From Schmidtea polychroa (Eukaryota), in contig CM097886.1 in NCBI GenBank assembly GCA_044892525.1, positions 14,570,001 through 14,634,000 of the forward strand: a DNA stretch of 64,000 nt, written 5' to 3'. Position numbers and translations under genes: made by a program. Below, one piece after another: positions 1,545 to 45,162 of this stretch. How positions within the stretch are numbered: the first letter of the stretch is position 1; the number at the start of each line of letters is the position of its first letter. The notes below the pieces were generated by a model. It did not search any database, was not told the DNA's origin, and saw nothing but the letters and a program-made list of their open reading frames with translations.

Positions 1545-2454
1545 TGTTGTGATTGAAAAGAAAAAGGGTTTAATTACTAATATTTAATCGTTTCATTACA
1601 AGAACTAAGAACTTTTTTTTCTTCCAATTTCACCACTGAATATTTTTTCCATTGAATTTATTATAGAGTTTGAAGACTATAAATCAGACTGATTTATAGT
1701 CTTCAAACTCTCTTTTTAATAAATATACTTATACATACAGAAAATATTCAAAACATAAAAAGTTACCGAATTATAAAAGCTTCCTACTATAACAGTTTGG
1801 TAAATATGGGTTTCCGGATTATTGAATTTCAAATATCGCTGTGAATGAATTGATAGTCGATTTGAATGATTTTAAAAAATAAACAATGAAATGATCGTGT
1901 TCGATAGCTTTCAATAGTTTTTTTGGTACGTTTTCTAACCAATCACAGTTGATCTGGTTTATTTTAATTAATTTATTTTATGATCTCACATTTTCTGTTA
2001 TTTTATTGGTAGATCGTTGTTTTATTTTTAATTATTTGATTTAATGTCCCTCAATTTTATTTTTATGGGTTAAAATCCTTTTCTTAGGTATCTATTGTTG
2101 TTTAATCATTTATTTTTGTTATTCCTTATTTTCTTTCTCCTTTGGAATTTATAAATATATAATTAATTTTCATCTTTTTTATTATTTATTTATTTCCTAA
2201 TTCACTGTTGATTATTAAGTTTTTATTGGTCAACTTCTGCGTTTCTGCTTCCCATTTCGTATATTAATTTTATTTTTCCTAATTTCTTTTGTTATTATTT
2301 ATTTTTATTTTGTCAATTTTATTTCTTTATTTTATTTTTACGTTTTCCTTGCGTTACCCGACCCTTTCACTGTTTTTTCCTTGGTTTTTCTTACAACAAG
2401 AAACAAAAAGATTTTAAGGAAGTTTATTTTAACCATATAGTTTTCAGCCCAACA
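1545..2454 (-). mobile_element. LTR-like segment truncating the adjacent Gypsy integrase; left boundary uncertain
   Basis: The right end GTTTTCAGCCCAACA resembles the terminus of the 48.6/62.3-kb LTRs (GTTTTCAACCCAACA) and falls exactly where the integrase frame (GPLPPNN) stops being homologous. There is a T-rich arm, a CCAAT at ~1,938 and TGTTGTG at 1,545. No unambiguous TSD. Confidence 0.4.
1665..1711. repeat. Perfect 47-bp palindrome (23-bp arms, 1-nt loop)
   Basis: AGAGTTTGAAGACTATAAATCAG-A-CTGATTTATAGTCTTCAAACTCT read directly. Confidence 0.95.
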
Positions 2455-4200
2455 GTTGTTTGGTGGTAATGGTCCCACTATGTCTATACGTATCATTTCG
2501 AAAGGTTGGCTGCTTGGGAAGTTTGCTTTTTCGACCGCAGGCTTTTTTGTTGGTTTTGTTGAGTTGGCAACCTTTGCATGTTTTGACGAATTTTTTTTTA
2601 TTTCTTTTAGCATGTTTGTCCACATGTATTTGTTGTGGATGATTTCATATGTGGGCCTGTTTCCTGGATGATTGTTATCGTGCATCTTTGAGATGAACAT
2701 GTTCCTGAACTGTTTTGGTAGGAGTATTCTTGGTGTGTTTTCGTTACTGATGCCGTACCAGCATTTATTGATTTTTTTCTATTTTTAGGCTATGTTTTGT
2801 TGGTAGCTCTTCCAGTGTTTCTGATTGTTTCGTCTTCGAAAATTTCACTGAATTCGAATGCATTTATGTCTGTTTCGGTTCTTGACAGAGTGTCGGCTGC
2901 TATGTTTGCTGCTCCTGTGACGTAATTGATTGTATAATTAAATTGGGATATATAATTTAATTGCCCTATTTGTCTTGGTAATGGAATTTTCATTCGAATC
3001 GCGTTTATAAGAGGTTTGTGTTCCGTATAAATCTTGAAGTTCCTTGCTTTTAGTAGTTGTTGAAAGTGTTTTATAGCCTTATTAATTGCGAGCAGTTCTC
3101 GATCGAATGTGGAGAATCTTGTCTGATGTATTTTTAATTTCTTGGAGAAGAAACCGATCCGTTGTTTACCGAATTCATTGTCTTGGTAGAGGGTTGCTCC
3201 CATTGCGAAATCTGAACTATATTTTACTAGGTTTATATCTAGTCTTGGATCCGGGTATCCAAGTAGTGTAGCTTGTGATAAACTTGTTTTTTCTTTTTCG
3301 AATTTTTTTATTGTTTCCTCGGTCCAGCTTATTTTCGCGTTTTGTCTTGTTTTGATTAGGTCGTTTAGGGGGCTAAAAGCTGGCTGCAGTTGGGTATATA
3401 AGAGTGGTAGAAATAGTATTTGTGTTTGGCAGTTTGAATTGTTGGATTTGCTCTTTTGAGTCTGTTTATGATCGGCAGTGGGTAGTTATCTGGCTCTGTC
3501 ATTTTGTTGAGCATTCTATAGTCCCCGCAAGCTCTCCAATCTCCATTTGCCTTTTGTTTGAGCATTAGTGCTGATGACCAGTCTGAATTCGAGCGTGTTA
3601 CTATATTGTTTTCCAGTAGTTCCTGGAAAATTTCTTCACTGATATTTATCTTTTGCGGGTCTAATTGTCTGACCTTTGCGTGCATTGGGTTTCCATTGGT
3701 TATGATGGCATGTTCAGTAGAGTGATTCGATTTTCCGTCGAAAGTTACTGGTTCGCTGAGTTTATTCAATTTTGCAGAAGTGCGGTTATTTCTAGAACGT
3801 GTTCGGCTGCTTTGATTGTTTTGATGTTTGGTGTGCTTGTTTGGATCACGCCGATGTCTACTTTTGAAATGCTCGTTGTTGTAATCATGGTGGTTTCTTT
3901 ATCTATTGTGAGGTTTTCAATTAATTTTTTGTTTCGACAGTCTACTATTAAGTTGTAGTGTGCTAGGAAATCAGCTCCGATTATTTACTGTTGGACCTCT
4001 GCGATTGTGAATGGCCAGTTGTATTTTTTTTTGAATTTATTGTTAAGATTAGTGTATGTTGGCCAAATGTTTTTTATGCTGGAACCATTTGCGGCGGTTA
4101 GTGGTTTTTCTGGTTTTTTTGCATTTTATCTTCTGATATCATACATATTATACTGCATTGAAGTGGCTATTTTCACTGCCATTTTAATAGCGTCAGTACA
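2455..4200 (-). mobile_element. pol: Degenerate Ty3/Gypsy pol (protease-RT-RNase H-integrase N-terminus), CsRN1-like
   Basis: Protease: LTAANGSSIKTFG...IIGADF. RT: SDWSSAL..KQKANGDWRACGDYRMLNKMTEPDNYPLP. RNase H: IGFFSKKL..HQTRFSTFDRELLAI..AIKHF...ANIAADTLSR. Integrase: HDNNHPG...IDIVGPLP. Several frameshifts. Confidence 0.9.
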
Positions 4201-4309
4201 TTTTCTTGTATGAATTGTAGAGTCTTTGAAATTGCTCATTCGAGAACGTTATTAATTTTTGCATCTATTTCTTACTTCTAAATAATTTTTTATATAACTT
4301 CTAAACTTA

Positions 4310-4799
4310 TTTTGCTACTTGTCCATTCATATGCCACAATGATGTGTCTCTGTCTTTGGCAGAAGAAGAAAAACTCATTGAATTGAAAAATGATGTAGTT
4401 TTGAAAGCTGCGCTTGCTGAGAAGGACTTGCCAGAATTTTGGATTTTCGTAAAAAGTCAATATCCTGATTTAAGTTTAAAAGCCATCAAATCTCTGCTGC
4501 CATTTGGATCCTCATATCTGTGCGAATTCGGATTCTCTGCACTCACAGAGATTAAATCTAAAAACAGAGAGCGATTTCTAATGTTGGATGATGAGCTGCG
4601 AGTTTGTTTAACAAAAATCGAACCACGTATAAAATTTATTTGCGACAAAAAACAAGCGCACTCATCCCATTAAATAAAATATATACATGTAATTTCATTT
4701 TATTAAAAAAATTCTATATAAAAGATACATTCTTTCTATTTGTGCCTTGACTTTTTTTTTCTAATTTGTGCCGGGAGGTAAAAAGTTTGCGTACCACTG
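4310..4799 (+). mobile_element. hAT (Buster/Charlie-type) transposase 3' fragment with right TIR
   Basis: C-terminal dimerisation motif LLPFGSSYLCEFGFSAL..IKSK.RER....DELRVCLT.IEPRI....KKQAHSSH. TIR ...AAAAGTTTGCGTACCACTG ends at 4,799 and is followed by CTGTAGAG (nnnTAnnn target). Confidence 0.9.
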
Positions 4800-5127: not shown

Positions 5128-5766
5128 TTATGAAATTATTTCATGTTTTAATTTTTTAGACATGTTTAAAATATCACCATTCAAATTATTATGACCTGCT
5201 TTCTTTGCTGCTAACAATTTTCTTAGTTGAATAAAAAGATTAATAAAAACTTTTCCATTAATATAATCGTGTTTTGTTACAAAATCCATTCCCTTTCCTT
5301 CTTTAACAACATAACCATTTTCATTTTGATTTAAATATTGATTTAAACCTTTTATATGTTTTGCATTTGATTTACCTCCCACCATTTTTATTAAATCTAA
5401 ATATATTTTAATTTCATTTTTATCATCTGAAGAATATCCTTTTATTAATTGATCCAAATCTTTTGTGTAATCTATATATAAACGTTGATTGTTGAAACTA
5501 TTTTGAGAACGAATATATACTTGACCATTATTATTTTCATATAATAGAAATCTTTGATTATTAATTGTTATAATTTGATATCCTTTATCAATAGAAAAAG
5601 TTGGTACAATTGTTGTAGGTAATTTTCCATTAATTGTTGTATCAACTTTGTATGGTTTTATATTTATCCCTAAATCTTCAGGTTCCAAATCCCAAGATTC
5701 CAATTGGTCTAATTGTTCTAAATGTCCAGATTCTAATTCTTTGGGTTTTAATTCTAATTCTTTCAA
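5128..5766 (-). CDS. Polinton hypothetical protein
   Basis: 212-codon open frame between the protease and the ATPase. Its C-terminus LRKLLAAKKAGHNNL..DILNM resembles a motif I recall from Polinton hypothetical proteins (recalled, not searched). Confidence 0.55.
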   Translation of the reverse strand: MKELELKPKELESGHLEQLDQLESWDLEPEDLGINIKPYKVDTTINGKLPTTIVPTFSIDKGYQIITINNQRFLLYENNNGQVYIRSQNSFNNQRLYIDYTKDLDQLIKGYSSDDKNEIKIYLDLIKMVGGKSNAKHIKGLNQYLNQNENGYVVKEGKGMDFVTKHDYINGKVFINLFIQLRKLLAAKKAGHNNLNGDILNMSKKLKHEIIS

Positions 5767-5861
5767 AGCTTTCGTTCATTTAAAGATTCTTCAGTCGTCA
5801 TTTTTTAATAAATAAAATGGTTCCATATATATATATATATATATAAAATTTTTATATATAA

Positions 5862-6543
5862 ATGGCTAGTTGGAATCCAATTTTAACGCGACATAAAAGT
5901 AAATTTAATAATAAAATATTTCCTCATAATTTTAGATTATTAATTGTTCGATTTTCAGGATGTGGAAAGAATGTACTTCTTTTGAGAATGTTACTTGGTT
6001 TTTTAGATTATAATAATTTAATATTTTATTCTATAACTATAAACTATAACTATAATGATTTTAGAATCAAACATTGCTAATAAAAATGATTATGTTAGTG
6101 ATGAATCAAGTTTCATTAATAAAACAAGTTTTAATAATGAATCAATACAGGTTTTATTCTCCAACAAACCTGAAGATGTATTACATTGTGATTTTCTTTC
6201 CAAAGATAAAAAGAATCTAGTTATATCTGATGATGTTGTAAATATGAAAAATCAAGAAATTCAAAAAAGTTATTTTACTCGAGGACGTCAGAATAATTGT
6301 AATGTGATTAACATCTTTCAAACTTTTATGCCTTGGATAAAAATTCAATTAAAAACAACTCCAATTATTTCATCTTTTTTAAATTAGATAAGCGTGACAA
6401 GAATATGATTTATAGTGATTTATTTACAAATGTTTAACCTGACAAGTACATGTTTAATGTGTTTGTCGCTAATCATTGGAAAAAAATACAATTATATTTA
6501 TTTGGATAGAGAAAAGGATGAGTTAAAGAAAAACCTGTTTTAA
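5862..6543 (+). pseudogene. Polinton A32/FtsK-like packaging ATPase, frameshifted
   Basis: FPHNFRLLIVRFSGCGKN (degenerate Walker A), NLVISDD (Walker B), YFTRGRQNNCNVI..FQ. At least two frameshifts. Confidence 0.9.
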
Positions 6544-6583
6544 ACTTGTATTTAAAATATTAAAAACTTGTTTTTAACAAAAT

Positions 6584-8480
6584 TTGATTTGTTAAAAACT
6601 TGATTTCTGTAATTCATTATTATAAAATCTACGTAATATTTCTTCATTATTTTCATCGATGATACCATATGTCATTGGAATTGTATGATGTATTTTATTT
6701 ATAATAAAAATTTCATTTGTCTATTTCGCTGTGAATCCTTTATCAAATTTATTTTTATATTTAAATATTTGTTGGGTTTTGAATTATTTCAAGTCGGTTC
6801 TCTCTGACTCCTGTGTTCTTTAAATCAAAACAATGAACGACCCAACGTATATTGAAACAACAGGTTCACAATTTATTATCACGCTACAATTACCAATCAA
6901 AGTTTTATACGATTCTCCGCTCGGCGTTGATGCTTTGCAAACAAATAATATTCACCTTTTAGTCCTTTAGATTCTCTCGATTCACGTTTTTCTCGGTTTC
7001 TGTTTGGTTTGATTCCTTTTCACCTCTCCGTATTCTTAATTCTATTCTTTTCCCTACTTTCCCTAATTCGTCTACCAACTTTTCCTACAGTCTAATTCTT
7101 CGAACCCTAGCTGAGGCAAAATGTCGATTTTCTCTGATTTTCCCTTTGCTTATATACTCCTCGAAATCAGGATGACAAATGGTTATTGCCGAGCCAATCT
7201 TTCGTTTGACATTTGCTCCTACGTATTTGCTTTGGCTGTCACCCGTAATGGTCCAACGAATCCATATAATTAATGGCCCTACCGGTCTTCCTACGCGCGC
7301 TATCTTCTCCTTACTCTTTTCCCATTAATCATTGTGTCAAACTAATGGGCCCAAATCTTCCTTCTGTTTGCTTTTCTTCTTGTTTACCCAGCTCGGGTTT
7401 CCTTTATCTCTCGGGTTCTCCATTGGCTCGGGTTTCCCATTAGCTCGGGTTTTCCATTAGCCAATTAATTAATTAATTAACGTTTTCTGTTTTCATACAT
7501 TTGAATGTTTTTCGACATTTCCTAACCATTTTCTGATAAATCCCTAACCATCATCTTGTTGACCATTAGCTAATCTATACCTGTCCCGTTTTTCCCATTC
7601 GATTTCGATGATTTTTCCATTTATTGATTTTTCTCGGATTTCCGGATACTTGCCTTTCGTAATTGCTTTTGGCATTTTCTAATACTGTTTCCATCACACT
7701 TTCCTTTACTATTGATTCTGTGCGCGATCCCGCTTTTATTTGTCTTTTTTCTTCGCTTACTTTCTATTTGAATTATTATCCTGAATTTTATTAAAATTTT
7801 TAATTTTAATTTACAGACCTCAACATATTCTTACTCTATCACCAATTTTAAACTTTGGTTTTTCTAATTCTTATTTTATAGCCAAAACTTGTTTTGGTTC
7901 TAAAACGGGGTTTGTAGAAGCTTTCCCTCCAAACAAGTTTGGAGAGAAAGAGCATTTAAAGGTTTTTCTTTAATAGAGCTATGTACATCATTATTATATT
8001 CATTTACCATCTTTTGTAACCATTCATTGTTCCATTTTTGTTTTCCAACAGCAGTAAAATATTTCCACATTTTATTTTTTAACTTTCTATTTAATCTTTC
8101 AACTACGACTGCTTTTCCTTTCTTTTCTGTTGAATATAATTTAATATCATTTTCTTGCAAAACCTTTGTAAAACTTTGTTATAAAATTCTGTTCCTTTAT
8201 CACCCCATAAATATTTTGGAATTCTTTGATATTCTTCAAATATATTTTCAAATGCTTCTGTAATAGAATATCCTGTTTCATTTTCTAAACATCTTGCAAA
8301 AGCAAATCTTGTATATAAATCTTTTATAGTTAAAATTATTTTATATTTTTCAGGGTCTGATGATTTGGTTGGCAAAAAGACTAAATCAGCAGACCAAGTA
8401 TGATCTTTTTCATAAACTTGAACTTTTAGATATTTTTTATTTTTTCTAAATTCATGGTATGATTCGTTAGCATATTTTAT
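6584..8480 (-). pseudogene. Polinton rve integrase, split by a solo LTR
   Basis: WSADLVF...ILTIKDLYTRFAFA...PKYLWGDKGTEFYNK...VVERLNR.LK. After excising 6,770-7,825 and one TSD copy the C-terminus reads KFKIGDRVRIFKYKNKFDKGFTAK*TNEIF...TY...FYNNELQK. Confidence 0.9.
6770..7825 (-). mobile_element. Solo LTR (1,056 bp), TSD TATT
   Basis: TGTTGGG...CCTCAACA with TATT at 6,766-6,769 and 7,826-7,829. Shares the GAGCTAATGGGAAACCC repeats and terminal motif with the 15,779 LTR, in opposite orientation. Confidence 0.9.
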
Positions 8481-8497
8481 TTGTGATTCTGTTGGGA

Positions 8498-9256
8498 TTA
8501 ATAAACTTTTATTAGTAAAACTTGTTTGCTAATAAAAGAATCAGTCTTGGATGCATTCTCGAGGTGTTTTTCAGTGTCTGCTTGTTCAATAATCTTTTTA
8601 TTAGCAACATCTTTTGCCATCCTTGGTACTCCTGCACCTATGAGAATCATGAAGATCTTACCCTTCATTGCTAATTTAACTAGAGCTCTTTGAATCTTTT
8701 CTTTGGTTGATGGATTTTGTATATTATTTAAATCATGTATTAAATTAACATCAGCAACATGTCTATCTCTAAGAATTTTTGAATTGTAAGCAATGTCATG
8801 TTTCAAAGCAGCTTGGTCAATTCTATTTATTGGTTCCTCTCCTTGTTTGGGATTATTATTTTCATCAAGTCTGATATCTAATCGTGTTCCTGGTCCAGTA
8901 TAGTTGTGTTTAAATAAATGTCTTTCACCTGGATATTTTTCAGTAGTAAAGGGTTTCAATAATGTTGATGTTAATTTTGGAGATTGTAAATCACCACCCT
9001 GTTTTTCAAAAATTTCAAAAGCAAATCTACTTGAAGGATCGAAATCTAACCATGGGATATTATTTGAAGATGAAATTATTTCACCTTCAAAATTATTTGA
9101 TGGAATATTATTATTATTTGATTGAGTTAAATTCTCTCTCTCTAAAGCAAGTTTAGATCGAGAGAGGTGTTTTTTAGTTTTAAGATGACTCGTTTTATGG
9201 TGTGTTGTAACATCACAATTACAAGTTTCACATCTCCAATAACGTTTAGTAGTCAT
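8498..9256 (-). CDS. Zinc-finger plus parvovirus-VP1u-type phospholipase A2 protein (adintovirus PLA2X-like)
   Basis: N-terminal CxxC...H..HL.TKKH. Ca-binding loop NYTGPGT, catalytic IDQAALKHDIAY and downstream RHVAD are all intact. Confidence 0.85.
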   Translation of the reverse strand: MTTKRYWRCETCNCDVTTHHKTSHLKTKKHLSRSKLALERENLTQSNNNNIPSNNFEGEIISSSNNIPWLDFDPSSRFAFEIFEKQGGDLQSPKLTSTLLKPFTTEKYPGERHLFKHNYTGPGTRLDIRLDENNNPKQGEEPINRIDQAALKHDIAYNSKILRDRHVADVNLIHDLNNIQNPSTKEKIQRALVKLAMKGKIFMILIGAGVPRMAKDVANKKIIEQADTEKHLENASKTDSFISKQVLLIKVY

Positions 9257-9344
9257 TTTTGAAAAGTTTAAATTTAATTATAATAATTTTAGTTTTATTA
9301 CTAAAAAACTTATTATTACTCCAAATAAGTTTGGAGAATTAAAC

Positions 9345-10619
9345 TTAATGTCCTCTAACATTCTCAATTATTGAAATCTTTCCACAATATAACTTCATTT
9401 CTATTTTCTTTTCTTCAAGAATTAATGTATATATTTTTGCTTTAAAATTAAAATCCTTTGTTATATGAAGAGTAACATCAACATTATTTATAGCTAATCT
9501 ATCATCTTGAACTGAAACATTTATACAGAATATAGAATACAAATTTTTGAAATCTTCTAAACTTAATTGTGGTTTTATTTTGAAGTCTTGGCATGTTTGA
9601 ATATAATTTACATATGGGAATATATTTTCATTGTTTTCTATATTAAACTCCATTCTATTTACTGGATAATTTAATTGAATTTGAATTGATTTTAATTTAT
9701 TAACTCCAATCTTTTGAATAAACAAGTTGTTATTTTTTTGAAAGGATGGATCTATTTCTTTGAATCCAATTAAAATATATCTTGGTCGATATGCTAAATT
9801 TGCAATCTTTATAGAGTATGTTGAACCTTCTCTCATGTCAAATACACTACAGATTCTATTTAAATAATTTACATTTATAGATTTGTTGGAATTTAATCTT
9901 TCCAGTAATTTAATTTCAGCGTGTGGATTTAATGCCCATTTAGATATATGTAATTCAAATGTTATTAATTTTAATTTACTTTTTGTATCTGCAGCTCCAA
10001 TAATATTTTATCATCTAATATTCTATTACAAAGTAATTCTATGAAAACATTATGGAGTATGTCATTATAGTTTTGAAGGAATCCAAATAAATGTATCAAT
10101 TCGAAATAACCTTCAAATTTTTTAGATTATATAGTTGAACTCGTTTATGATAACCATAATTTACATCTAAACCATCTTTGTCTAAATCACCATTATTTAC
10201 ATTAGGGATCCAACCTGTTAATTCACCATATTCATTTTTGTAATCACAACCAGTCAAAACAAAATTTAACATTGTAGAATATACACCTGGACTTGATATT
10301 TTTTTAATTTCTGATGATCCTAATTTTAATCTCATGCTGTTGAATAAATTTGGAAAGATATTATTTTCTAGGTTAATATCTTTGTTTGCTTCAATCTCTA
10401 ATTCAATTTTGTAATATAATTTTGCATTACAAATATCTATAGGGTTTGATGTTTGAAGATATTAAAAAACTATATCACCAACACGATTTAAATTTGAAAT
10501 GGAACCAGAGGTTGGACAGATTTTAAGTACATCATTTTCTTGATTTCATGAATAAACTGTTTATCATAATCAAGATTTAATTTATTTTTTTCTAAAATCT
10601 CGAGATTTATATTGTTCAT
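9345..10619 (-). pseudogene. Polinton major capsid protein (double jelly-roll), frameshifted
   Basis: ATG at 10,619; ...LNRVGDIVF...NNIFPNLFNSMRLKLG..EIKK..SPGVYSTM; RPRYILIGFK...NNNLF...YP...F...FKNLYSIFCINVS. The ORF-track pieces 10,096-10,335 and 9,345-9,836 are fragments of it. Confidence 0.8.
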
Positions 10620-24079: not shown

Positions 24080-24450
24080 TTGTATTCTATAACTATCACA
24101 AGCATGTTTAACGCAGGACAAAGAAACGAACAAGCTGGTCCCTCGTCGACCGAATTAACCCCCGAGACAATCCAGATGGAGGCCGAAGACACAGCCAGTC
24201 TCGATCGAATCGAGGAACTAACACGTCTGCGATCGAGGTGGATTTGGTACTGCATCCACGATTGGACGTACCAGAATGTGACCCCAGTAACACCAAAAGT
24301 GGAGCCATACATAAATCACACGAAGCTGGAGTTAATGGGGGCCTTCAGGACGTCAAGATAGTCCTAGATCGGCTGCAGAGATTGGAAACGGAAACTCTGG
24401 CCGGTGAGCTAGAGGACCCCGATGGATCTGCCAAGTTGCATTGCTATTAT
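24080..24450 (+). pseudogene. Unknown ORF relic, convergent with the UBL ORF
   Basis: Overlapping + strand frames 24,080-24,361 and 24,238-24,585 in a locally GC-richer block; no recognised motif. Confidence 0.35.
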
Positions 24451-25122
24451 TCGATCCATCTTTGCTCTCATTCCCCATTGGAATCTCTTGATTTGTTGAT
24501 CGGTTTTGGTGGCGTTTTTGTGTCCACCCGATGGTTCATCCATCGCGATTATATTAATGACGGCTCCATCTTCCCAGATTCCTAGTTCGTAAATTACAGT
24601 TCGGTCTCCTCTTTCTAGCATGTGCCGGTTGTACATTATTATCACATCTTCGATCATTCCATCCTCACTATTTTCTCGAGCCTTTTGGATGATCTCTTGA
24701 TCTATGATTCGTACTAATTCGTCAACTTGGCAATCGGGATTAACTTCTATTATTTGTTTCTCTTCATTTGGCAACTTCACCTTCATTTTTATTGTTTCTT
24801 GTTCGCATTTGGTTCTCTCGTATTCTCCGTATTTTGATATCAATTCTGTTGCACGTACGTCTTTGACAAATTGTTTCATTAGTTGTGCCCATCTTTCTTT
24901 CAGTCTATTAATATATTTCCTTGCCTGATCGATAGCTTGTTTGACCAAGATTATTTGGTTTTCTTTCATTATTTTTCGTTCGATCTTTTCCAATTCTGGT
25001 TCTACTTCATTGTTAAACACTTGTTGGATTTTCTTGAACATTTCTGCTACCGATTCGTCATCTCTGGTTTTCTCTAAGGTTAAGATGTTAGTTTCGTTTG
25101 GCCATATCATCGCATCTACCAA
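24409..25122 (-). CDS. Coiled-coil plus ubiquitin-like domain protein with internal di-Gly (first ATG at 25,110)
   Basis: aa 111-200 (IKMKVKLPNEEKQIIEVNPDCQVDELVRII...VIIMYNRHMLERGDRTVIYELGIWEDGAVINIIAMDEPSGG) follow the beta-grasp pattern of ubiquitin; 237-codon open frame in AT-rich DNA. Confidence 0.65.
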   Translation of the reverse strand: MVDAMIWPNETNILTLEKTRDDESVAEMFKKIQQVFNNEVEPELEKIERKIMKENQIILVKQAIDQARKYINRLKERWAQLMKQFVKDVRATELISKYGEYERTKCEQETIKMKVKLPNEEKQIIEVNPDCQVDELVRIIDQEIIQKARENSEDGMIEDVIIMYNRHMLERGDRTVIYELGIWEDGAVINIIAMDEPSGGHKNATKTDQQIKRFQWGMRAKMDRIIAMQLGRSIGVL

Positions 25123-25904
25123 ATGTATGTCCGTAAAACGACAATCGCACTGAATTCTCTTCGGCTATAACTTGTGTTATAGTGTTCGATATATATATCT
25201 ATAACAGTATAAAGTATGTAGTTAGTTATTTGTAATAAGAAGTTTGAAGAACCCGATAGAGTCACCGATAAAAAATATGGCGGGACAATAGGGGTGCGTG
25301 TATGTAATTAACAAAAGACCTCACAAGAATGTTACTAAATCGTATCACAAAAAAATAATAATGCACAGTTTAACTAACAAACGTTTTATTAAGTAATAAA
25401 TAATATGGAACCTGTATAAAACTGAATGTTGTAGGTTGAATTTCAGGGTCCAAATGCAGTTAATATGTTAGATAATCGTCTGGTTGTAGATGATATGAGT
25501 TTGTAGAATAATCTTCTGATTATAGATGATATTTATTTGTAGAATAATCTTCTGATTATAAATGATATTTTAATTGTTTATTGATTTTAATTAGTTTTCG
25601 TTATAGTTTCTATATAGTTTTTTTAAAACATTTCGTTTCGTGCTATTGGGACACAGAAATGAAAATAAAGACAAAACCTAATTTGGGAACAGTTTTGATT
25701 CATAAAATGATAAAATGTGGCATCGCATATTCTCTTATTCTTGTAGTTTGTTCTAGTGGGTGTAACCATACCTTGTTTTGATTCACTTGACTTAGTTTGT
25801 ATATTGTGATATAGATCATTCAATTTGGCTTGACAATGGTTTTATATTAATTTTAGTTGCTCACTATTCTAATTTATTTGTTTTTTTATAATAAATTTAC
25901 AAAA

Positions 25905-31172: not shown

Positions 31173-32698
31173 GGCTAATACTTCATAAAGTCAGTGAAAC
31201 GGTGACGGTATTTTTTAATAGTTAGATAGACAGTTAGTGAAATTTGGCTGCGATTTGGAAAATATAATCTAATACAACTTCTTCAGAGGATTAGTAAGGC
31301 GTTCACAGAAGCACAAATAACAGACCAACGGTTATTGCGACACAAGTTTATTGAAGCTCTTCCAAAGGAAATTAAGCTCATAATCACAAGTTTTTAAAAA
31401 AAGTCTACGGAACAATTGTCTGCAATAACAGACGGGATGATGGCAGGCATGGAAAATGAAACACCATATTCGAATTACAATTTTAAAATCCAGGCATTAA
31501 TGGATGAAATCGCGGAATTAAAAGAAGAAATATTCTATTTAAAGGAAACTCCCAAGAAATCAAAATGCCTTAGCTTCTATCACAGTATTTATGGAAAAAA
31601 CGCCAGGAAATGTGACAAACTGAAAGATGGATCCCGATGTGCTTCATATATGCCGGGAGATGGAAAAACGCTTCGAAATTAACCACCGTCGAAGCTTGTA
31701 TTCAAAAGCTGTATACAGTAAATCAAATCTTCATTTTAATTAATAAGACAAATTTTTAGTGGAAACAGGAGCATCTGTTTCATGTTTGCCACGAAAATTT
31801 TTCAAGCCAGAAATTCCGTGCTCATCTCGACTTACAGCTGCTAATAGTACTCCAATAAAATGTTATGGGAATAGGAAGATTGATTTACGAATCGATGACA
31901 AAACAATTAGTTGGCTTTTCCATGTATGCGATGTATCACAGCCTATTCTTGGTGCACATTTTCTAGCAGCACATCACGCTTTAATCGACTACAAGTTGAA
32001 AAGAGTTTCAATTAATTCGATAGTTGATAATAATCTTTTGAGTTACTTCAACAAACCAGAATGTAGCGCCAAGATCACATGACATTGTTTTAAATGATAT
32101 CGTCAAGACTATTATATGGCGACAAATTAAAAGCTGCCAAAGATTGGTTTAATAAAATGGTAGACACTGGCAAATGTCGATTATCAAACTCACCGATTTC
32201 TTTTTCACTGGTCGTTGTAAATCAAAATGGAAAATAGATTTTGCGGTAATTAAAGAAATCTGAATACAGAAACCGTCCCTGATAGATATTCAATTCCAAG
32301 AATCGAGGATATATTGTAGATTGTGAGAAATAAAAAATACTTCTCTACTATCGACCTTGGAAAAGAGTATCTACAAATTCCAATGAACGAAAATGACATT
32401 CCAAAGACAACAATAACTACTCCGTTTGATATGTACGAATTTCTTTTTATGTCATTTTTATTACGAAATGCCACATCGACTTTTCAAAGAACAATTGACG
32501 CAATACTGTGGAAATTTCCATTCGCAAGAGCATACTTGGATGCAACAGATACAGAAGAGGATCATGACAACCATTTAAAAATAATTGCAAATGAATTAAA
32601 TAAAGTTGGATTGTTAATAAATGTAAGGAAATGCTAAAAATCTGAAGTAGATTTTTTGGGCCATCACATATCAAGAACTGAAATTTGTATATATGGTT

Positions 32699-32831
32699 AC
32701 GTTCCCAATAGTGTACCTGGGTATAAATAACCAATTAGAGTACCCGGGTATACTAATTGGATTTATTATTTTTTCAGAATATTGCCATTTTCCAATTAGA
32801 GTACCCGGGTATTATATTCAGAACTTTACGG
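32699..32831. mobile_element. Small pogo-like MITE relic inside the RT
   Basis: Two CCAATTAGAGTACCCGGGTAT copies and end ...AGAACTTTACGG|TA, interrupting RT between FLGHHIS and RRYLGIINFY. Confidence 0.5.
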
Positions 32832-34094
32832 TAAGAAGATATTTAGGTATAATTAATTTTTATAATCGTTTCATTTCAGAGTCTGCAAATAAATTGGAAT
32901 TATTATATAAACTCATCAATTCTAAATCCAAAAAGATAATTTGGACGGAGGAAAGTCTAAAATGTTTTGATGAAGCGAAACAATTATTACAAAAAACGAC
33001 TGAACTCGCGTTATTTCATGAATCAGAACCTACCACCTTGAGAACTGATGCCTCAGGATCAGGTATTGGAGTAGTAAAACGGTCGACCTATATCATTTTT
33101 TAGCAGACTGTTAACGAAGACAGAATCTAGATACAGTACATACGACAGATTATTACTTCCAATATACAAAGCTTGCAAGCACTTCCATCATTTTCTCGAA
33201 GCCACTGAATTTGTGATACAGACGAATCACAAACCAATCGCCCAACGACAACAAAAGGACCCAAGCAACAGACAATGCAAGATAGTTTACTGCCATGGAA
33301 AAAAAAACAAATTGCTGATGCACTCTCTAGAACAGACGCTCAATTAGTTTCAGAAAACGTTTACCCGTGACCGAATGAAGAGATACTACAAAAGCAGAAA
33401 GAAGAGATGAAGCATAATAAAGATGAATTATTAATGAAGAATGGGAAATTAATATTACCACCGAGTCTCAGAAGAGAAGTTTTTCAGATGACTCACAATG
33501 TCGCTCATCCAGGAATACGAAGGACCAAAAAGTTGATGTTGAGCTCATATACATGGCACAAGATGACAAAGGATGTCCAGATGTGGTGTCAGCAATGCGA
33601 TTCCTGCTCAAAATCAAAGGTATATCTTCATATCAAAGCACCATTGCAAACCTTCCCAGCAACTAGTCGGTTTCATACACTTCACATGGATATTGTTGGA
33701 GCTCTTTCAGCAAATAACGTAAGTCCTATTTACTCACAATGATCGATAGACAAACATCATGGCCTGAGATATTGGCCATTAAAAACATAAATTCAGAAAC
33801 CGTGGCAAAATCACTAATTGGATTTTCCGATATGGAATCCCATCTGAAATCGTAACAGATCACGATAGGCAATTTACAAGCTCTTTATTCCAGTATCATC
33901 CTCAAGCAAACGGAAAAGTAGAAAGATTACTTCGGCACAGAAAGCATTTGGATGTGATCTTGCTGTACCAGGAATTATGTTAAATTCCCCAAAAGAAGCT
34001 TCTCCACATCAATTAAAAGAAATTATTGAGATTCAGAATAATCGAAAGACCATTGCAAGATGGTATGACGATCCCAAAATCTATTAAGGACTGT

Positions 34095-35221: not shown

Positions 35222-37399
35222 ATATTTCAAGCTATTGAATGAGGATAATGTATCAGTTGATCGTCTAAAACCAGCATGGCAATCAAGTTAGGAGTGGAGA
35301 ATTGTTGTGATTAGAAAAGCATTAATCACACAAAACCCTTTTAACAAAATATTAATTTAATTTTGTTTCAATAATTAAGAATTGTGAAATTATAAATATT
35401 TGAATTTTGTTAAATCATTATGTCAAATCATAACAACTACCATAACAAATTTATTAATCTTAAAACAGATCCTGTGATAGTAGGCCTGGACTCGTATATT
35501 ACTTAATCAAGAAAGCATTCTGTTGAAGCCTCAGTGTTGAACTCTTAGTGTCTTATACTTAGTCTTAAGGTTAGGTATTGAATTAAGTATGTGCTCTAGT
35601 TGCATTATAGATCATTAATTACTCAAATTGTTTGTCGTCCTGGCTCACTGGACTCGATACGGCAAACCCTTAATGTGTTGTAACCTTGAGCTAACGTACA
35701 AAATAAAGGTTCGCCGTGGCCTCAGTCGATTTAATTATAAACGTTAACACTACACGTAGACAACGTCGATACTGATCATGTTGCTTATACCTGGGCCTAA
35801 AATCAGTTTTTACCCAACTCATGGAACAACATAAACTTAAATTTTTTATTCACTTTAGATGTACTGAATTTCAATGAACTGAAAAAGTTAACTCATTTCT
35901 TGACCAACGAATTTTGAGTATTGACATACACATAAAAATGGTAATCAATGAAAAAATGTTTACTAAACTGCTGAGCTATATAATAAAAGTGTTGAAATTG
36001 ACCAAAACTGCTAAGTTGGAGATTCTAGTTATAAAATTTTTAAATAAAGTTAAAAATTTCGTATTTACTGAAAAAATTAAATAATTTACGTAGGTTTAAG
36101 TACATAATCAAGATTGTAAGGCTGTGAAAATAGTAAAATTAAAATTAAGTAGAATGTAATTAAAAAAAAATAACGGTCTACAAAATTTTACAGTAAACCA
36201 ATCGACCACTTCGCGCGAGAACAATATAGTAGAGTCCAGAAGTAGAATGTTCCGGTAAACCGGCCTGGTGTCTAATTCATCACTAGCAACTAACGCGAAC
36301 ACAGAATGTTATCAGTGAAGGGTTAGAATAACATGAAAACTTAACTGTAAGACAAACAGTAATCGACATACAATCATTGTTAGATGCTATAACATTCAAT
36401 TCTTCAGTCATCAAATAAATTACTAAGACTAAATAAATCCAAAATTATATTTCAATAAATCTACTTATCTGAACTTCGAATTTTTGTCCAGGGTCATAGT
36501 TTTATAACATCCTGGGACATTTTCTTTTTATAAATTTTAATTTCAACCAAATATCAACATACCACATTCATACTTGAATTGCAATTTTATTAAAAATTAT
36601 TTTCAAAATTAAAATCAAAATATTCATTTTAATTTTAAACCATTTTAATTTTAATATATTTTAAATAATTTAAGTTTCGCTTTTATTTTTACAAAATTTA
36701 ATCATAAAATAATTCTAATTTAATATTTTAATTTTAACTCCTCACAGTCTTAATCATAGTTTTTCTAGTTTAAATTAAATCTATTTTAGCTATTTATAAT
36801 TGGTAGACCATTTCAACTAAATAGATTAGTTTTTACAAATTAAGTGTAAGGTGTACGGTTAATTAATTATAATGCCGAATCGTTTTAACTAATAGTACTT
36901 AAAAGTCATTTTAACTATTTAAATTTACAACTCCGTTTAACTCATCGTTTACTTGGATCGTTTTAATTAAATAGTTTTTTTTCTTTTCAATAAATTTGGA
37001 TTTAAATCTTTAGGGGATTGGCTTTGATGATTTATGGCAGGGGTGCCCATAAGGTCGATCACGATCTACCGGTAGATCGCGAAGGATTTTTTAGTAGATC
37101 TTCATAAAAATATTTTTTATATAAATTTAGATTTTATATAAAATTTCTGTTTTATGCTTAAATTTTTTGTCAATTTTCATGTTCTGTCTTCCATTTCTAT
37201 GGTAATACTAAATAACATTTTTTAATTTTGATTTCACCATTTCCAAAATGTTATTTAGTTTAATTTAGTTTAGGTAAATATTATGTAAGGTAGGTAAATA
37301 TTATGTAAGTATTAAAAAAGTAGATCGCATACACATTTTGGATGTGAATGTAGCTCTCCTAGAAAAATTAGTGGGCACCCCTGCTGTAGTGTATTTGAC

Positions 37400-37900
37400 A
37401 TGAGAGAAGGTTCAACATACTCTATAAAGATTGCAAATTTAGCATATCGACCAAGATATATTTTAATTGGATTCAAAGATATAGATCCATCCTTTCAAAA
37501 AAATAACAACTTGTTTATTCAAAAGATTGGAGTTAATAAATTAAAATCAATTCAAATTCAATTGAATAATAGTTATTATCCAGTAAATAGAATGGAGTTT
37601 AATATAGAAAACAATGAAAATATATTCCCATATGTAAATTATATTCAAACATGCCAAGACTTCAAAATAAAACCACAATTAAGTTTAGAAGATTTCAAAA
37701 ATTTGTATTCTATATTCTGTATAAATGTTTCAGTTCAAGATGATAGATTAGCTATAAATAATGTTGATGTTACTCTTCATATAACAAAGGATTTTAATTT
37801 TAAAGCAAAAATATATACATTAATTCTTGAAGAAAAGAAAATAGAAATGAAGTTATATGGTGGAAAGATTTCAATAATTGAGAATGTTAGAGGACATTAA
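37400..37900 (+). pseudogene. Captured Polinton capsid C-terminal part
   Basis: Near-identical to 9,345-9,836; retains NSY that the 9.6-kb copy lacks. Confidence 0.9.
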
Positions 37901-37987
37901 GTTTAATTCTCCAAACTTATTTGGAGAAATAAACAAGTTTTAGTAATAAAACTAAAATTATTATAATTAAATTTAAACTTTTTAAAA

Positions 37988-38542
37988 ATGACTACTAAAC
38001 GTTATTGGAGATGTGAAACTTGTAATTGTGATGTTACAACACACCATAAAGCGAATCATCTTAAAACTAAAAAACACCTCTCTCGATCTGAACTTGCTTT
38101 AGAGAGAGAGAATTTAACTCAATCAAATAATAATAATATTCCTACAAATAATTTTGAAGGTGAAATAATTTCATCTTCAAATAATATCCCATGGTTAGAT
38201 TTCGATCCTTCAAGTAGATTTGCTTTTGAAATTTTTGAAAAACAGGGTGGTGATTTACAATCTCCAAAATTAACATCAACATTATTGAAACCCTTTACTA
38301 CTGAAAAATATCCAGGTGAAAGACATTTATTTAAACACAACTATACTGGACCAGGAACACGATTAGATATCAGACTTGATGAAAATAATAATCCCAAACA
38401 AGGAGAGGAACCAATAAATAGAATTGACCAAGCTGCTTTGAAACATGACATTGCTTACAATTCAAAAATTCTTAGAGATAGACATGTTGCTGATGTTAAT
38501 TTAATACATCATCAACCAAAGAAAAGTTTCAAAGAGCTCTAG
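37988..38542 (+). pseudogene. Captured ZnF-PLA2 gene, 3' frameshift caused by a 25-nt deletion
   Basis: Near-identical to 8,498-9,256; catalytic motifs intact; deletion between CAT microhomologies. Confidence 0.88.
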
Positions 38543-40840: not shown

Positions 40841-41689
40841 GAAAGTCTACATAATTAAGGTTTGTTGACGAAGATAGTATTTTTAAAGATTTATAAATGT
40901 CTGGTATAGATTTAAATATTTTAATATGAATGACAGAAATGAATCTAAACATTTAAGCACAGAATCGAAATTGAAGTCTTCTTGTTTCATGTACCTTAGA
41001 AACGGCATGATTACATTTCATCCAGATAAATAAATATTACTGTCCATCACTTTACATCCATCACATAAACAATTCCTAGACTATCATTGTTGTTGAAAAA
41101 CATCGGTTTGGTTTGTCCTTAATATCACTTAAGCAAATTTTCAAATCGGATCGCTATTCTAATTAATATTTACATTAGATTTAAATATTCATCTACATGA
41201 GAGGGAAGGCTTTCCCGTTTACCGGCAGGCATTATTTCATGTTCATTCAATTTATTCTAATACTATTCAAATTAATTTTTTATTTAAACCTCATTTAAAT
41301 TAAACTTCGATTGAATTAATATTTTCTTTAATAATAAATGGAGTTTACCTATGTTCGTTAATCAAATCTCGTTCCCAACACTCGGAAAGTTCTCGAGGGT
41401 ATACATGAAATAGTGCTGGTAGGGTATGAAGTGGAGATCGGCTGGAATCCGGCCATCATGTAGAAATGTTTAATGCTAAAATTTGAGTCAAATTCAATAT
41501 GTGATTTTTCGATTAGATGTCTGATTACTTATATCCCCATTTGCTGTTTTGCGAATCACTTTATAACTACTTTTCCAAATTTTCAGTAAATGTCTGAACC
41601 AAATCTTCCCAAGGCTGGTCCAAAGCCGTGTTTTTTCATCTTTTTTCTCTTCGTAAAACTTTAATATTAATTTCCTAGTGTCAGATTGA

Positions 41690-42797
41690 TTCTTTGGTAA
41701 TATAAATTCTTTTTGCTTAATATATTCTCGAATGGAATCACTACCCGTAATCCATTTTATGGAAAAACCATCTTTAGCAGCTAACCGGGCAACAATTTCA
41801 GGGAGTGATTGTTTTTTTATGAAATTTGATATAGATGATTGGCATATTGTAATTCTTTTGGGACTATTTAAACATTCCGTATTTTTGGATTCTTCTATAG
41901 TTTTTTTATCTAGATAAATATCATGAACTCTTTCTAGATGTATTTCTAATCCAGTTGTATTTGACCCTTTGCATGAAATTTTTCTTGGACAGTGTTTGCA
42001 TTGAGTTGATTCTTTTTGTGCTAGTTTTTTGTAATGTTTCCATACTTCCGAATGATTAAAATAATGATCGAATAAAAAATAACAATAAAATGATAATACT
42101 TATTTTATACGAAATATCCAAAGCAAATATTATTATAATTACCGTTAAAATGAATTTAAAATGTTAATATCGAAATCTGCAGGTCACAATTTTAAAAATA
42201 AATTGATAATTCATTTTGCAAGTTGTTAAAAACTATATCGAGTATCTAAATATGTAGAAAGAAACTGATCGTATTTAGTAAGTTTATAATAATAGAAAAA
42301 TATAAGAAACAACTAAATTGGTTTTATAACATGTAAGAATGCAAGCTGGACGTTTATTTGTTATGTATTCTGTCGACAGATATGTGAAATACAATTGAGA
42401 TGGCCCATTGTTTTCGCACGTACCTTCACCGTCGCCAAAGGGTTAATATTTTATGCATATCCATAACACATTAACACATCCTTTGGAAAACGAGTAATGT
42501 TTACGTTAAAAAATAAATTTAAATTTACGATGGCGAATGCTGTCGGGTTTGGAAATTGGATAAAAATATTTTATCTAATTTCCAGATTGTGTAGTTTTTG
42601 AAGGAGGGCTGACCAAAAATAAAAATAAAAAAATCTTTCTACATTTGCAAAAAAAGTCGACAAATAAAATGTAAAATATATTAACTACATTTTTAATCAA
42701 AAAGTCTCGAGTCCCGGGAATTTTTTAATAAAAGTCCCGAGACTCGAGACAGTTAAAAACCCCAAAAGTCTCGGAACGTCTCGACGCAGAATCCCTA
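41690..42797 (-). mobile_element. 5' part of a BED-finger hAT-like element
   Basis: SEVWKHY...QCKHC...SCKGSNTTGLEIHLERVH; SLPEIVARLAAKDGFS; terminus TAGGGATTCTGCG at 42,797 with CGAGAC subterminal repeats. Confidence 0.75.
42400..42442. mobile_element. piggyBac-like end
   Basis: CACCGTCGCCAAAGGG|TTAA; partner end not found. Confidence 0.4.
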
Positions 42798-43001: not shown

Positions 43002-45162
43002 GCTATGGCGGAGAATAAGGGTACTGATTTTGTAAATGAATAAATAATGTAATATAATATAACGAATAACTCCATATAACATGACTATTCCTAATAATAT
43101 GATCATAATAAATAGTTAAACCATTAATATTTAATGATTTTTTAAATTCTTTTATATCAATAATACAATTTCTATAATAATTTTTTCTTATAAATCACCC
43201 CAATGAAAAAAAGAGCATTTACAATTGCTTTTAAGAAAGAAGTGATTTCATATATGGAACTTGGAAATTCATGTTATAAGGCAAAAAACTTCGGCTACAG
43301 AGATAGTTGCTAGTATAGTCAATCTATGTTTCAGCAGTGGTGTAAGAAAAAAGAAGCGATTAGAGCACAATCTGCATCGATGAAAAGAGCGTCTGGAGGC
43401 GGAAGAAAGTCTTTGCTGGGATCTCTTGAAGAATTAATTTTTGATGAAATTATTGAATTAAGAATAATGAAAATAAGGTTACCCGAACTTTCATATCCGA
43501 TCGAGATATTACATTAGGAGAACAAAATAATATTGACATCAAAGCTTCAGGCCGCTGGATTGATGGTTTCATGAAAAGAAAGTGATTGTCGCTTAGAAGA
43601 ACCAACTTTACGAATTTATTAGATTATACGTTAATTTTCCGTACCATTAATTATATGGGTTTTTTAAGAGCTACGATCCTTAATTTTGACTTGTCGAAAA
43701 CATTGTTAATGGATGAAACAGCTGTTTATTTCGAAGATAATAGGACCCATACAGTTGATTTAAAAGGACGGAGACACGTAATAATGAAATCAACAGGGTT
43801 TTCTTCCATGCGTATAACAGTAATTGCGTCAATTTGCGCTAATGGAAGAAAAGCTGTACTTCTTGATATTCACAAAGGAAAATATACTTTTGCAAATATT
43901 AATTCGCTCAACAATATTTATAGCATTACACAAGAAAAAGCATGGGTAAATCAAGATTTAATAATCGCATGGATAAATTTAATGTTACCCATGTTTGATG
44001 CTAGTCAAGGAAAATGTATTGTATGGGATTCTTGCCGTGCTCATATTTCAGAACGTGTAAAAGAGCACTGCAGAAAAGAAATATATAACTTGTGGTAATA
44101 TCCGGTGGAATTTGCAAGCAGGAGATATTGGAATTTTTAAAGAATTTAAAGACAGAATTTCCAGTTTTATTATTATTTGGAAAAACTCCGAGAAAGGCGA
44201 ATACAAAAGACGTGGAAATCCCAGGGCTCCCAGCCAAGGCTTGTGAATCTTTGGATTAGTAATGCTTGAAGCTCTATGTCTATTCAAAACATAAAAAACT
44301 CTATTCAATCAGCTGGATTTTATGGAGAATTTCGGATTGGCATATATCTAAAAAAGATATTTATGGTGAGAGATTCCGAAATGAATTTATTAATTCGATA
44401 TTTGAAGATTCAACACCAACTCAGAACGAGCATGATTTTGAACCAGATGTATTTGATCTAGCTGATGAATGATTAAAAATACAATTATGTTTTTTATATT
44501 TCTTTAAAGTCAAATAGTATGACTAATTTACTTAACCATATTATTGGAGTTATCCGTTAAATATTTTTATGGAACTATGGATTTGTTTGAGCTTTTAGCA
44601 ATAATAAATGATGGTATGAAACCAATTTTATGGTTTATTGAACACAGGTTAATAAGAGAACGGATATTATGTGAAATATGTGGGAACACCTGAATCTTTG
44701 AATTCCTTTAAATGAATTTGTCGTTCTTGAAAAGAAAATTCAAAATACACGTTTAGAAGAGGTGTAGGAAGCTTTTTTGAATCAGCTAAAATTGCGTTGA
44801 AAAAATTTTTAGTTTTATTAAATAAGCAAAATTAGAAAAAAACAGTAATATTGCTATTTTAGGGATGTGTTCACACTATTTACTTGGAAATTGTTCTGAA
44901 TTTGGCGGAGATAGACGAGTCAAAGTATATGAAAATGAAATCAAACCGGGGGAATCCGAATGAAAATTCAGGATGAAAAAACGAGTTTTCGGTATTTTCG
45001 ATATGAACACTAAATTTTTTCATTTGGAATAGGTAAGTAACATGAAAAAAATACATATACAATTCAAATATTTTTTTATATTTTAGTTTAGTCACAAGAT
45101 ACTTATATTATTTATTTATTCACTTATTTTCAAAATCAGTACCCTTATTCTCCACCATAGGC
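43002..45162 (+). mobile_element. Merlin (IS1595-like) defective element carrying a nested pogo
   Basis: TIR CTATGGCGGAGAATAAGGGTACTGATTTTG / CAAAATCAGTACCCTTATTCTCCACCATAG; probable 9-bp TSD TAAAATCGT/TAAAATCAT; relics CEICG...GSFFESAKI and EIDESKYMKMKSNRG. Confidence 0.75.
43062..44557 (+). mobile_element. pogo-family (CENP-B HTH plus DDE_1) transposon, pseudogenised
   Basis: ATG 43,203 MKKRAFTIAFKKEVI; GGGRKS; MDETAVYF; VWDSCRAH; short TIRs ACGAATAACTCCA/TGGAGTTATCCGT between TA dinucleotides. Confidence 0.85.

Follow-up and report, generated by a model that had tools for sequence, protein, structure and literature searches.

An apparent ubiquitin-like gene of Schmidtea polychroa is a fragment of a giant, probably Burro1-type, retroelement polyprotein gene

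Does a small ubiquitin-like reading frame in the genome of Schmidtea polychroa represent a host gene for a new protein modifier, or a piece of something larger? The frame is an intronless ATG-to-stop ORF of 233 codons on the minus strand, found in the ORF list of a 64,000-nt stretch of DNA (the window). The original prediction, made from the sequence alone, was of a divergent ubiquitin-like (Ubl) protein with an N-terminal coiled coil, either processed at an internal di-glycine and conjugated or acting as a DUB/SENP decoy, and of mobile or viral origin. The features on which it drew are all present in the sequence, namely the intronless ORF, the motif EPSGG (aa 192–196) with a 37-aa tail, the overlapping plus-strand frame and a raised GC content. 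The mobile or viral origin was also right, as the frame derives from the polyprotein of a retroelement. The 233-codon frame is not a stand-alone gene. With good confidence, the locus is 689 bp of a giant Burro1-type element's polyprotein gene, lying in an older repeat and probably without function, and the Ubl is probably an uncleaved module of that element.

A chimeric frame in a patchwork of repeats

A search of the genome, which has four large contigs and totals 781 Mb, returned at least 188 matches to the frame when 150 out of the 877 candidates were scored; the source element is high-copy and young. Among the matches listed, all 149 other than the window's own end at aa 223, with 94–98% amino acid identity, and at least 40 matches sit in an open frame of 4,791 codons. 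The start Met of the 233-codon frame is aa 852 of this polyprotein frame, an internal residue within the end of an upstream domain (Ubl1). Past aa 222, the DNA switches via a 3-base overlap to the antisense strand of an adjacent repeat, repeat X (Table 1). The 37-aa tail is an artefact of truncation, consisting of 26 aa of polyprotein and 11 aa read from the antisense of the repeat.

Table 1. Features of the locus, with positions in the window.
Feature	Position	Strand	Basis or remarks
Chimeric 233-aa frame	24409..25110	-	222 polyprotein residues plus 11 residues and stop from antisense repeat X
Internal fragment of Gag-Env-Pol polyprotein gene, Burro1-type giant Ty3/Gypsy, both ends broken	24444..25132	-	blastn against 20 other loci, one gap
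C-terminal end of polyprotein Ubl1, holding the Met of the frame	25072..25132	-	Ubl1 aligned weakly with a ubiquitin variant, E-value 0.53
Helical segment between Ubl1 and Ubl2 (the predicted 'coiled coil'), carrying the deletion	24829..25071	-	two long helices, low-confidence model
Ubl2, likely ubiquitin-like, aa 106–196, ending in EPSGG (GG at 24523–24528)	24523..24795	-	ESM Atlas, sub-cut-off Pfam
Repeat X, left part: older LTR-like repeat with frameshifted ORF remnant	24086..24446	+	matches at 68–86% identity
Repeat X, short middle part	25137..25175	+	local alignment to L034, score 60 versus shuffle maximum 31
Repeat Y, ~550 bp, LTR-like, inserted in X	25175..25723	-	53 matches
Repeat X, right part	25720..25881	+	blastn to L034, L037 and L038, collinear with left part

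The polyprotein fragment begins inside Ubl1 and stops mid-protein. Outside a 33-nt in-frame deletion near 24855 (blastn alignment), it shares 94.9–96.8% nucleotide identity with all 20 copies aligned. The block had been described as one GC-rich unit, and the rise in GC is there (0.50 at 24086–24446 and 0.375 at 24447–25132, with flanks at 0.27–0.30), but the bulk of the excess stems from the left part of repeat X, not from the Ubl frame, and the block is no unit, being patched together from three repeats. The 'convergent ORF' (24112–24585) is a plus-strand, stop-free frame that overlaps the 233-aa frame and has no ATG of its own across the overlap. Rather than a separate ORF, it is a frameshifted remnant of the ORF of repeat X that continues into antisense polyprotein DNA; the corresponding ORF at locus L038 matches the window (tblastn) in two frames, at 24086–24346 and 24340–24447.

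Repeat X has at least 42 matches in the genome, its own place aside, at 68–86% identity (40 of 199 candidates scored). It is likely to be the LTR of a family related to Burro1, since three of the five X loci fetched share ~200 bp that are 78–81% similar to the Burro1 LTR. About 137 bp of repeat X are absent where the polyprotein fragment sits. Repeat Y, at another locus (L041), directly precedes a Gypsy gag-protease frame. Part of the Burro1 LTR is matched at 75% by a further old LTR remnant, at 19137–19379 of the window.

With up to 2 mismatches allowed, the 30-mer across each junction is unique in the genome. The left junction is probably real DNA, because a contig from run X6 (24262–24470) crosses it without mismatch, although on one side of it the contig extends for fewer than 31 bases. 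When the fragment was compared with 20 copies (one of 21 loci was dropped, the anchor motif being absent), only 3 of 666 bases were private, that is, absent from all copies; the event that placed it here would accordingly be recent, and its open frame is inherited and is not evidence of selection. Beyond 24444–25132, the window contains no other match to the internal region of the element, and the locus copy lacks the LTRs, gag and pol, and target duplication of an autonomous LTR retroelement. From the 3-nt junction overlap, the ~137 bp of lost target and the lack of LTRs and target duplication, we infer that element cDNA or a genomic copy was captured by end joining during break repair; a full element that inserted here and then underwent two deletions would be indistinguishable from capture in the present sequence. 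Capture of retrotransposon cDNA at double-strand breaks is established in yeast, and the locus resembles the cases in the available text of that report (PMC11724301) in being an internal piece without LTR or target duplication, with a short junction overlap and loss of target bases. It differs in that the pieces described there come mostly from the LTR region, whereas here the presumed capture is of an internal coding piece. The locus copy probably does nothing.

The source element and its relatives

A natural full copy of the element, examined as separate 10-kb stretches (L021–L025), is ~34 kb long and carries a 4-bp target duplication and TG..CA ends; its LTRs show no difference across 4,326 aligned bases. 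Its long frame gave Pfam matches to zf-CCHC, MATH, Monjiviricetes_fusion, RVP, RVT_1, RNase H, rve and Ank, and the order of domains is Gag-knuckles-Ubl1-helices-Ubl2-MATH-Ubl3-(Bcl-2-like)-fusion glycoprotein-PR-RT-RH-IN-ankyrin. The Bcl-2-like region before env returned no Pfam hit in this family, in which a GGW motif is visible; related families match PF00452 at this position with E-values of 3e-5 and 0.02. Accessory ORFs of the full element (L024:5318–9778, L022:4434–4913) specify TRAF-like (zinc fingers plus MATH) and BIR-RING (IAP-like) proteins, and there are also a RING ORF preceding gag and long coiled-coil ORFs.

The layout corresponds to that of Burro1/GYPSM1 of Schmidtea mediterranea as given in section 7 of PMC6431247, which includes a size of >30 kb, long LTRs, a single ORF of ~4,800 aa with Gag, CCHC knuckles, MATH, a mononegavirus-type fusion glycoprotein between gag and pol, PR-RT-RH-IN and ankyrin, and a BIR in an accessory ORF. 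Judged by layout and size (4,791 codons here versus 4,873 aa published), the source element appears to be Burro1/GYPSM1, of which the window carries only 689 bp. Both the element and a single Ubl domain in it are already in print: the one Ubi/SUMO-like domain named in the text of PMC6431247 lies between MATH and BCL-2 and is Ubl3 here. Ubl1 and Ubl2 lie upstream of MATH and are unnamed in that text, and a search of literature other than the primary Burro1 paper turned up no description of Ubls in this position. According to the available text of PMC8532177, tissue expresses Burro1 RNA, at levels that rise when SMEDWI-2 is lost.

Three related families, with frames of 3,334, ~3,419 and 3,437 codons, were found via a profile of the fusion protein. 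They have two Ubl-like domains at the equivalent place, 160–167 aa apart versus 175 aa in the Burro1-type element, and the helical unit that precedes their Ubls weakly resembles, in a profile comparison, the segment lying between Ubl1 and Ubl2 (E-value 0.0066, probability 5.7%). Codon differences in 190 pairs of copies, which are not independent, comprised 4,247 synonymous and 961 non-synonymous changes, indicating that the Ubl region is under purifying selection. Tandem Ubl-like domains between Gag and Bcl-2/envelope are kept in four related giant families, and they sharpen a proposal already in print, in which Burro elements interfere with ubiquitination and cell death in the host. To the published picture of Burro the extra domains add modestly, and the source element is of more interest than the locus, which itself matters little. 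Three compact Burro-like families (L045:7525–8535, L049:1335–2390 and L093:2451–3512) carry their Ubls within a duplicated unit made up of an ~80-aa helical segment, without a family match, and a Ubl.

Ubiquitin-like character of Ubl2

Ubl2 is likely to be a ubiquitin-like domain. Its hydrophobic pattern aligns with that of the genome's own ubiquitin, with an insertion of ~10 residues after helix 1. Submitted alone to the ESM Atlas, it gave a recognition value of 3145 and a first hit to the PF00240 cluster (0.91), with 158 shared features (same-family hits typically share 170); the best named hits (10/10) belong to one clan. The Pfam family OTU1_UBXL matched below the cut-off (E-value 0.018), and Ubl1 aligned weakly with a ubiquitin variant over 68 aa (E-value 0.53). 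A profile of the related families' Ubls alone returned ISG15/ubiquitin at an E-value of 2e-6 and, with the Burro1 domains added, NEDD8, RAD23 and di-ubiquitin as well.

That the pattern is a look-alike and Ubl2 not ubiquitin-like at all is improbable, but several results lean that way. As a single domain, Ubl2 has no Pfam or PDB hit over threshold. The AlphaFold models are poor (pLDDT 39 and 51), and neither Foldseek nor VIA gave a beta-grasp match that stood out when run on them, so that this check did not recover the fold. In a leave-one-out test against a profile built from the Ubls of the other families, Ubl2 was equalled or exceeded by 177 of 993 shuffles, and hhalign returned a probability of 0.5%. 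What argues against a look-alike, besides the Atlas hits and those gained by adding the Burro1 domains to the profile, is the order strand-strand-helix-strands in both models, and a position and spacing that match those of the better supported Ubls of the related families. As the profile and hhalign scores were negative, orthology to these Ubls rests on position and spacing. The predicted divergent Ubl is thus retained as likely, by the Atlas and family profiles, with its beta-grasp fold unconfirmed by structure or leave-one-out profile. The N-terminal part is indeed helical and amphipathic, with helices in the low-confidence model, and is a coiled coil only putatively.

Ubiquitin-shaped domains of the integral UBL/UBX type (RAD23, ubiquilin, OTU1, and Ubl1 of coronavirus nsp3) lie within larger proteins, are not conjugated and have a binding role. 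Ubl2 would be a likely counterpart, as a ubiquitin-shaped domain in a larger protein, but is very divergent from them, lacking a single-sequence hit over threshold and carrying the insertion after helix 1.

The di-glycine and the role of the domain

The GG is internal to the polyprotein (aa 1057–1058 of the 4,791-codon frame) and directly follows the predicted last strand of Ubl2. It is kept in 21/21 copies of the same family, which carries little weight because 104 of 117 positions (89%) are invariant among these copies. Conservation in homologues had been set beforehand as the point on which the original prediction would turn. The motif was found in none of the eight equivalent domains of the three related families, in neither of the polyprotein's other Ubl-like domains (Ubl1 and Ubl3), and within 50 aa of none of 45 domain ends in family 3. 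The tail of Ubl2 has Pro at P4 and lacks the LRLR-like basic residues of the genome's ubiquitin. Because the GG is internal and absent from the other Ubls, and the tail without basic residues, a conjugated modifier is unsupported; a protein processed at GG and conjugated together with its coiled coil is not supported either, the frame being a truncated polyprotein piece, and a DUB/SENP decoy, if there is one, would have to be the polyprotein. More probably the domain has a scaffold role within the polyprotein. In the intact element, Ubl2 would probably remain uncleaved and act as a binding module built into the polyprotein, not as a conjugated tag. The Ubls may well dock factors of the host ubiquitin system beside the TRAF-type MATH and the RING and BIR-RING ORFs, and so tune polyprotein turnover or host death signalling.

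Cleavage after the GG by a host DUB or SENP, freeing Gag-Ubl1-Ubl2 from MATH-Ubl3-Bcl-2-Env-Pol, is unlikely; if true, the host ubiquitin system would mature the polyprotein of an enveloped retroelement via one of three captured Ubls. The placement of the GG after the last strand, its presence in every copy and its rarity (only 7 GG in 3,333 aa of the polyprotein) would suit a cut site, and an unrelated BEL/Pao family in the genome has GG-ending ubiquitins fused to Gag. There is also a precedent in the cytopathic pestivirus BVDV, in which, according to the available text of PMC8310069, ubiquitin inserts in the polyprotein serve as processing signals; there, too, a viral-type polyprotein contains a Ubl with GG after it. 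The pestivirus inserts are host ubiquitin in near-canonical form, whereas Ubl2 is barely recognisable and its GG is not common to the related families. The general invariance among copies, the composition of the tail and the element's own aspartic protease also count against cleavage. At the locus itself, a young chimeric gene, with repeat Y as promoter and the captured helical-Ubl protein as a putative decoy, is very improbable. It has in its favour what stands against the best explanation, a frame that is still open, with an ATG, downstream of a same-sense LTR-like repeat; there are a TATA-like word at 25197 and AATAAA at 24081, and the run X6 contig covers the left junction. However, the openness is inherited, the Met is internal with an out-of-frame ATG 5 nt upstream, both words are common at 29% GC, the arrangement is single-copy, and database searches returned no homologue as a separate protein. 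A genuine new host gene for a conjugatable Ubl modifier, as the Ubl-like pattern and GG motif might suggest, is so improbable that it was rejected, as the genome search places the frame in a multi-copy polyprotein, the GG is not conserved across families and the tail is a junction artefact. The favoured reading of the locus, a polyprotein fragment in an older repeat, makes it repeat debris that looks like a short gene without introns, a case worth bearing in mind when genes are called in the S. polychroa genome.

Judged by eye from their translations, none of the window's long frames is evidently a host gene. Frames at 5131–10461 (minus strand) and 37316–38539 (plus strand) are capsid-like, phospholipase-like and integrase-like, and we take them to be decayed Polinton/adintovirus-like elements. 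Decayed Gypsy pol and DNA transposase pieces, labelled by eye, occur at 2341–3898 (minus), 31747–33739 (plus), 4305–4670, 41497–42099 and 43586–44095. A 126-codon frame without a Pfam hit (21097–21477, plus strand), directly after a stretch of N, encodes imperfect tandem peptide repeats. Elsewhere in the genome, the high-copy BEL/Pao-type family (L054:4673–8857, plus strand; also L057–L061) carries a near-canonical di-ubiquitin, both units of which end in GG, joined in frame to the front of Gag (DUF1759). The host gene pieces upstream in this family vary, and include dual-specificity phosphatase, proteasome alpha-like and Rab-like sequences.
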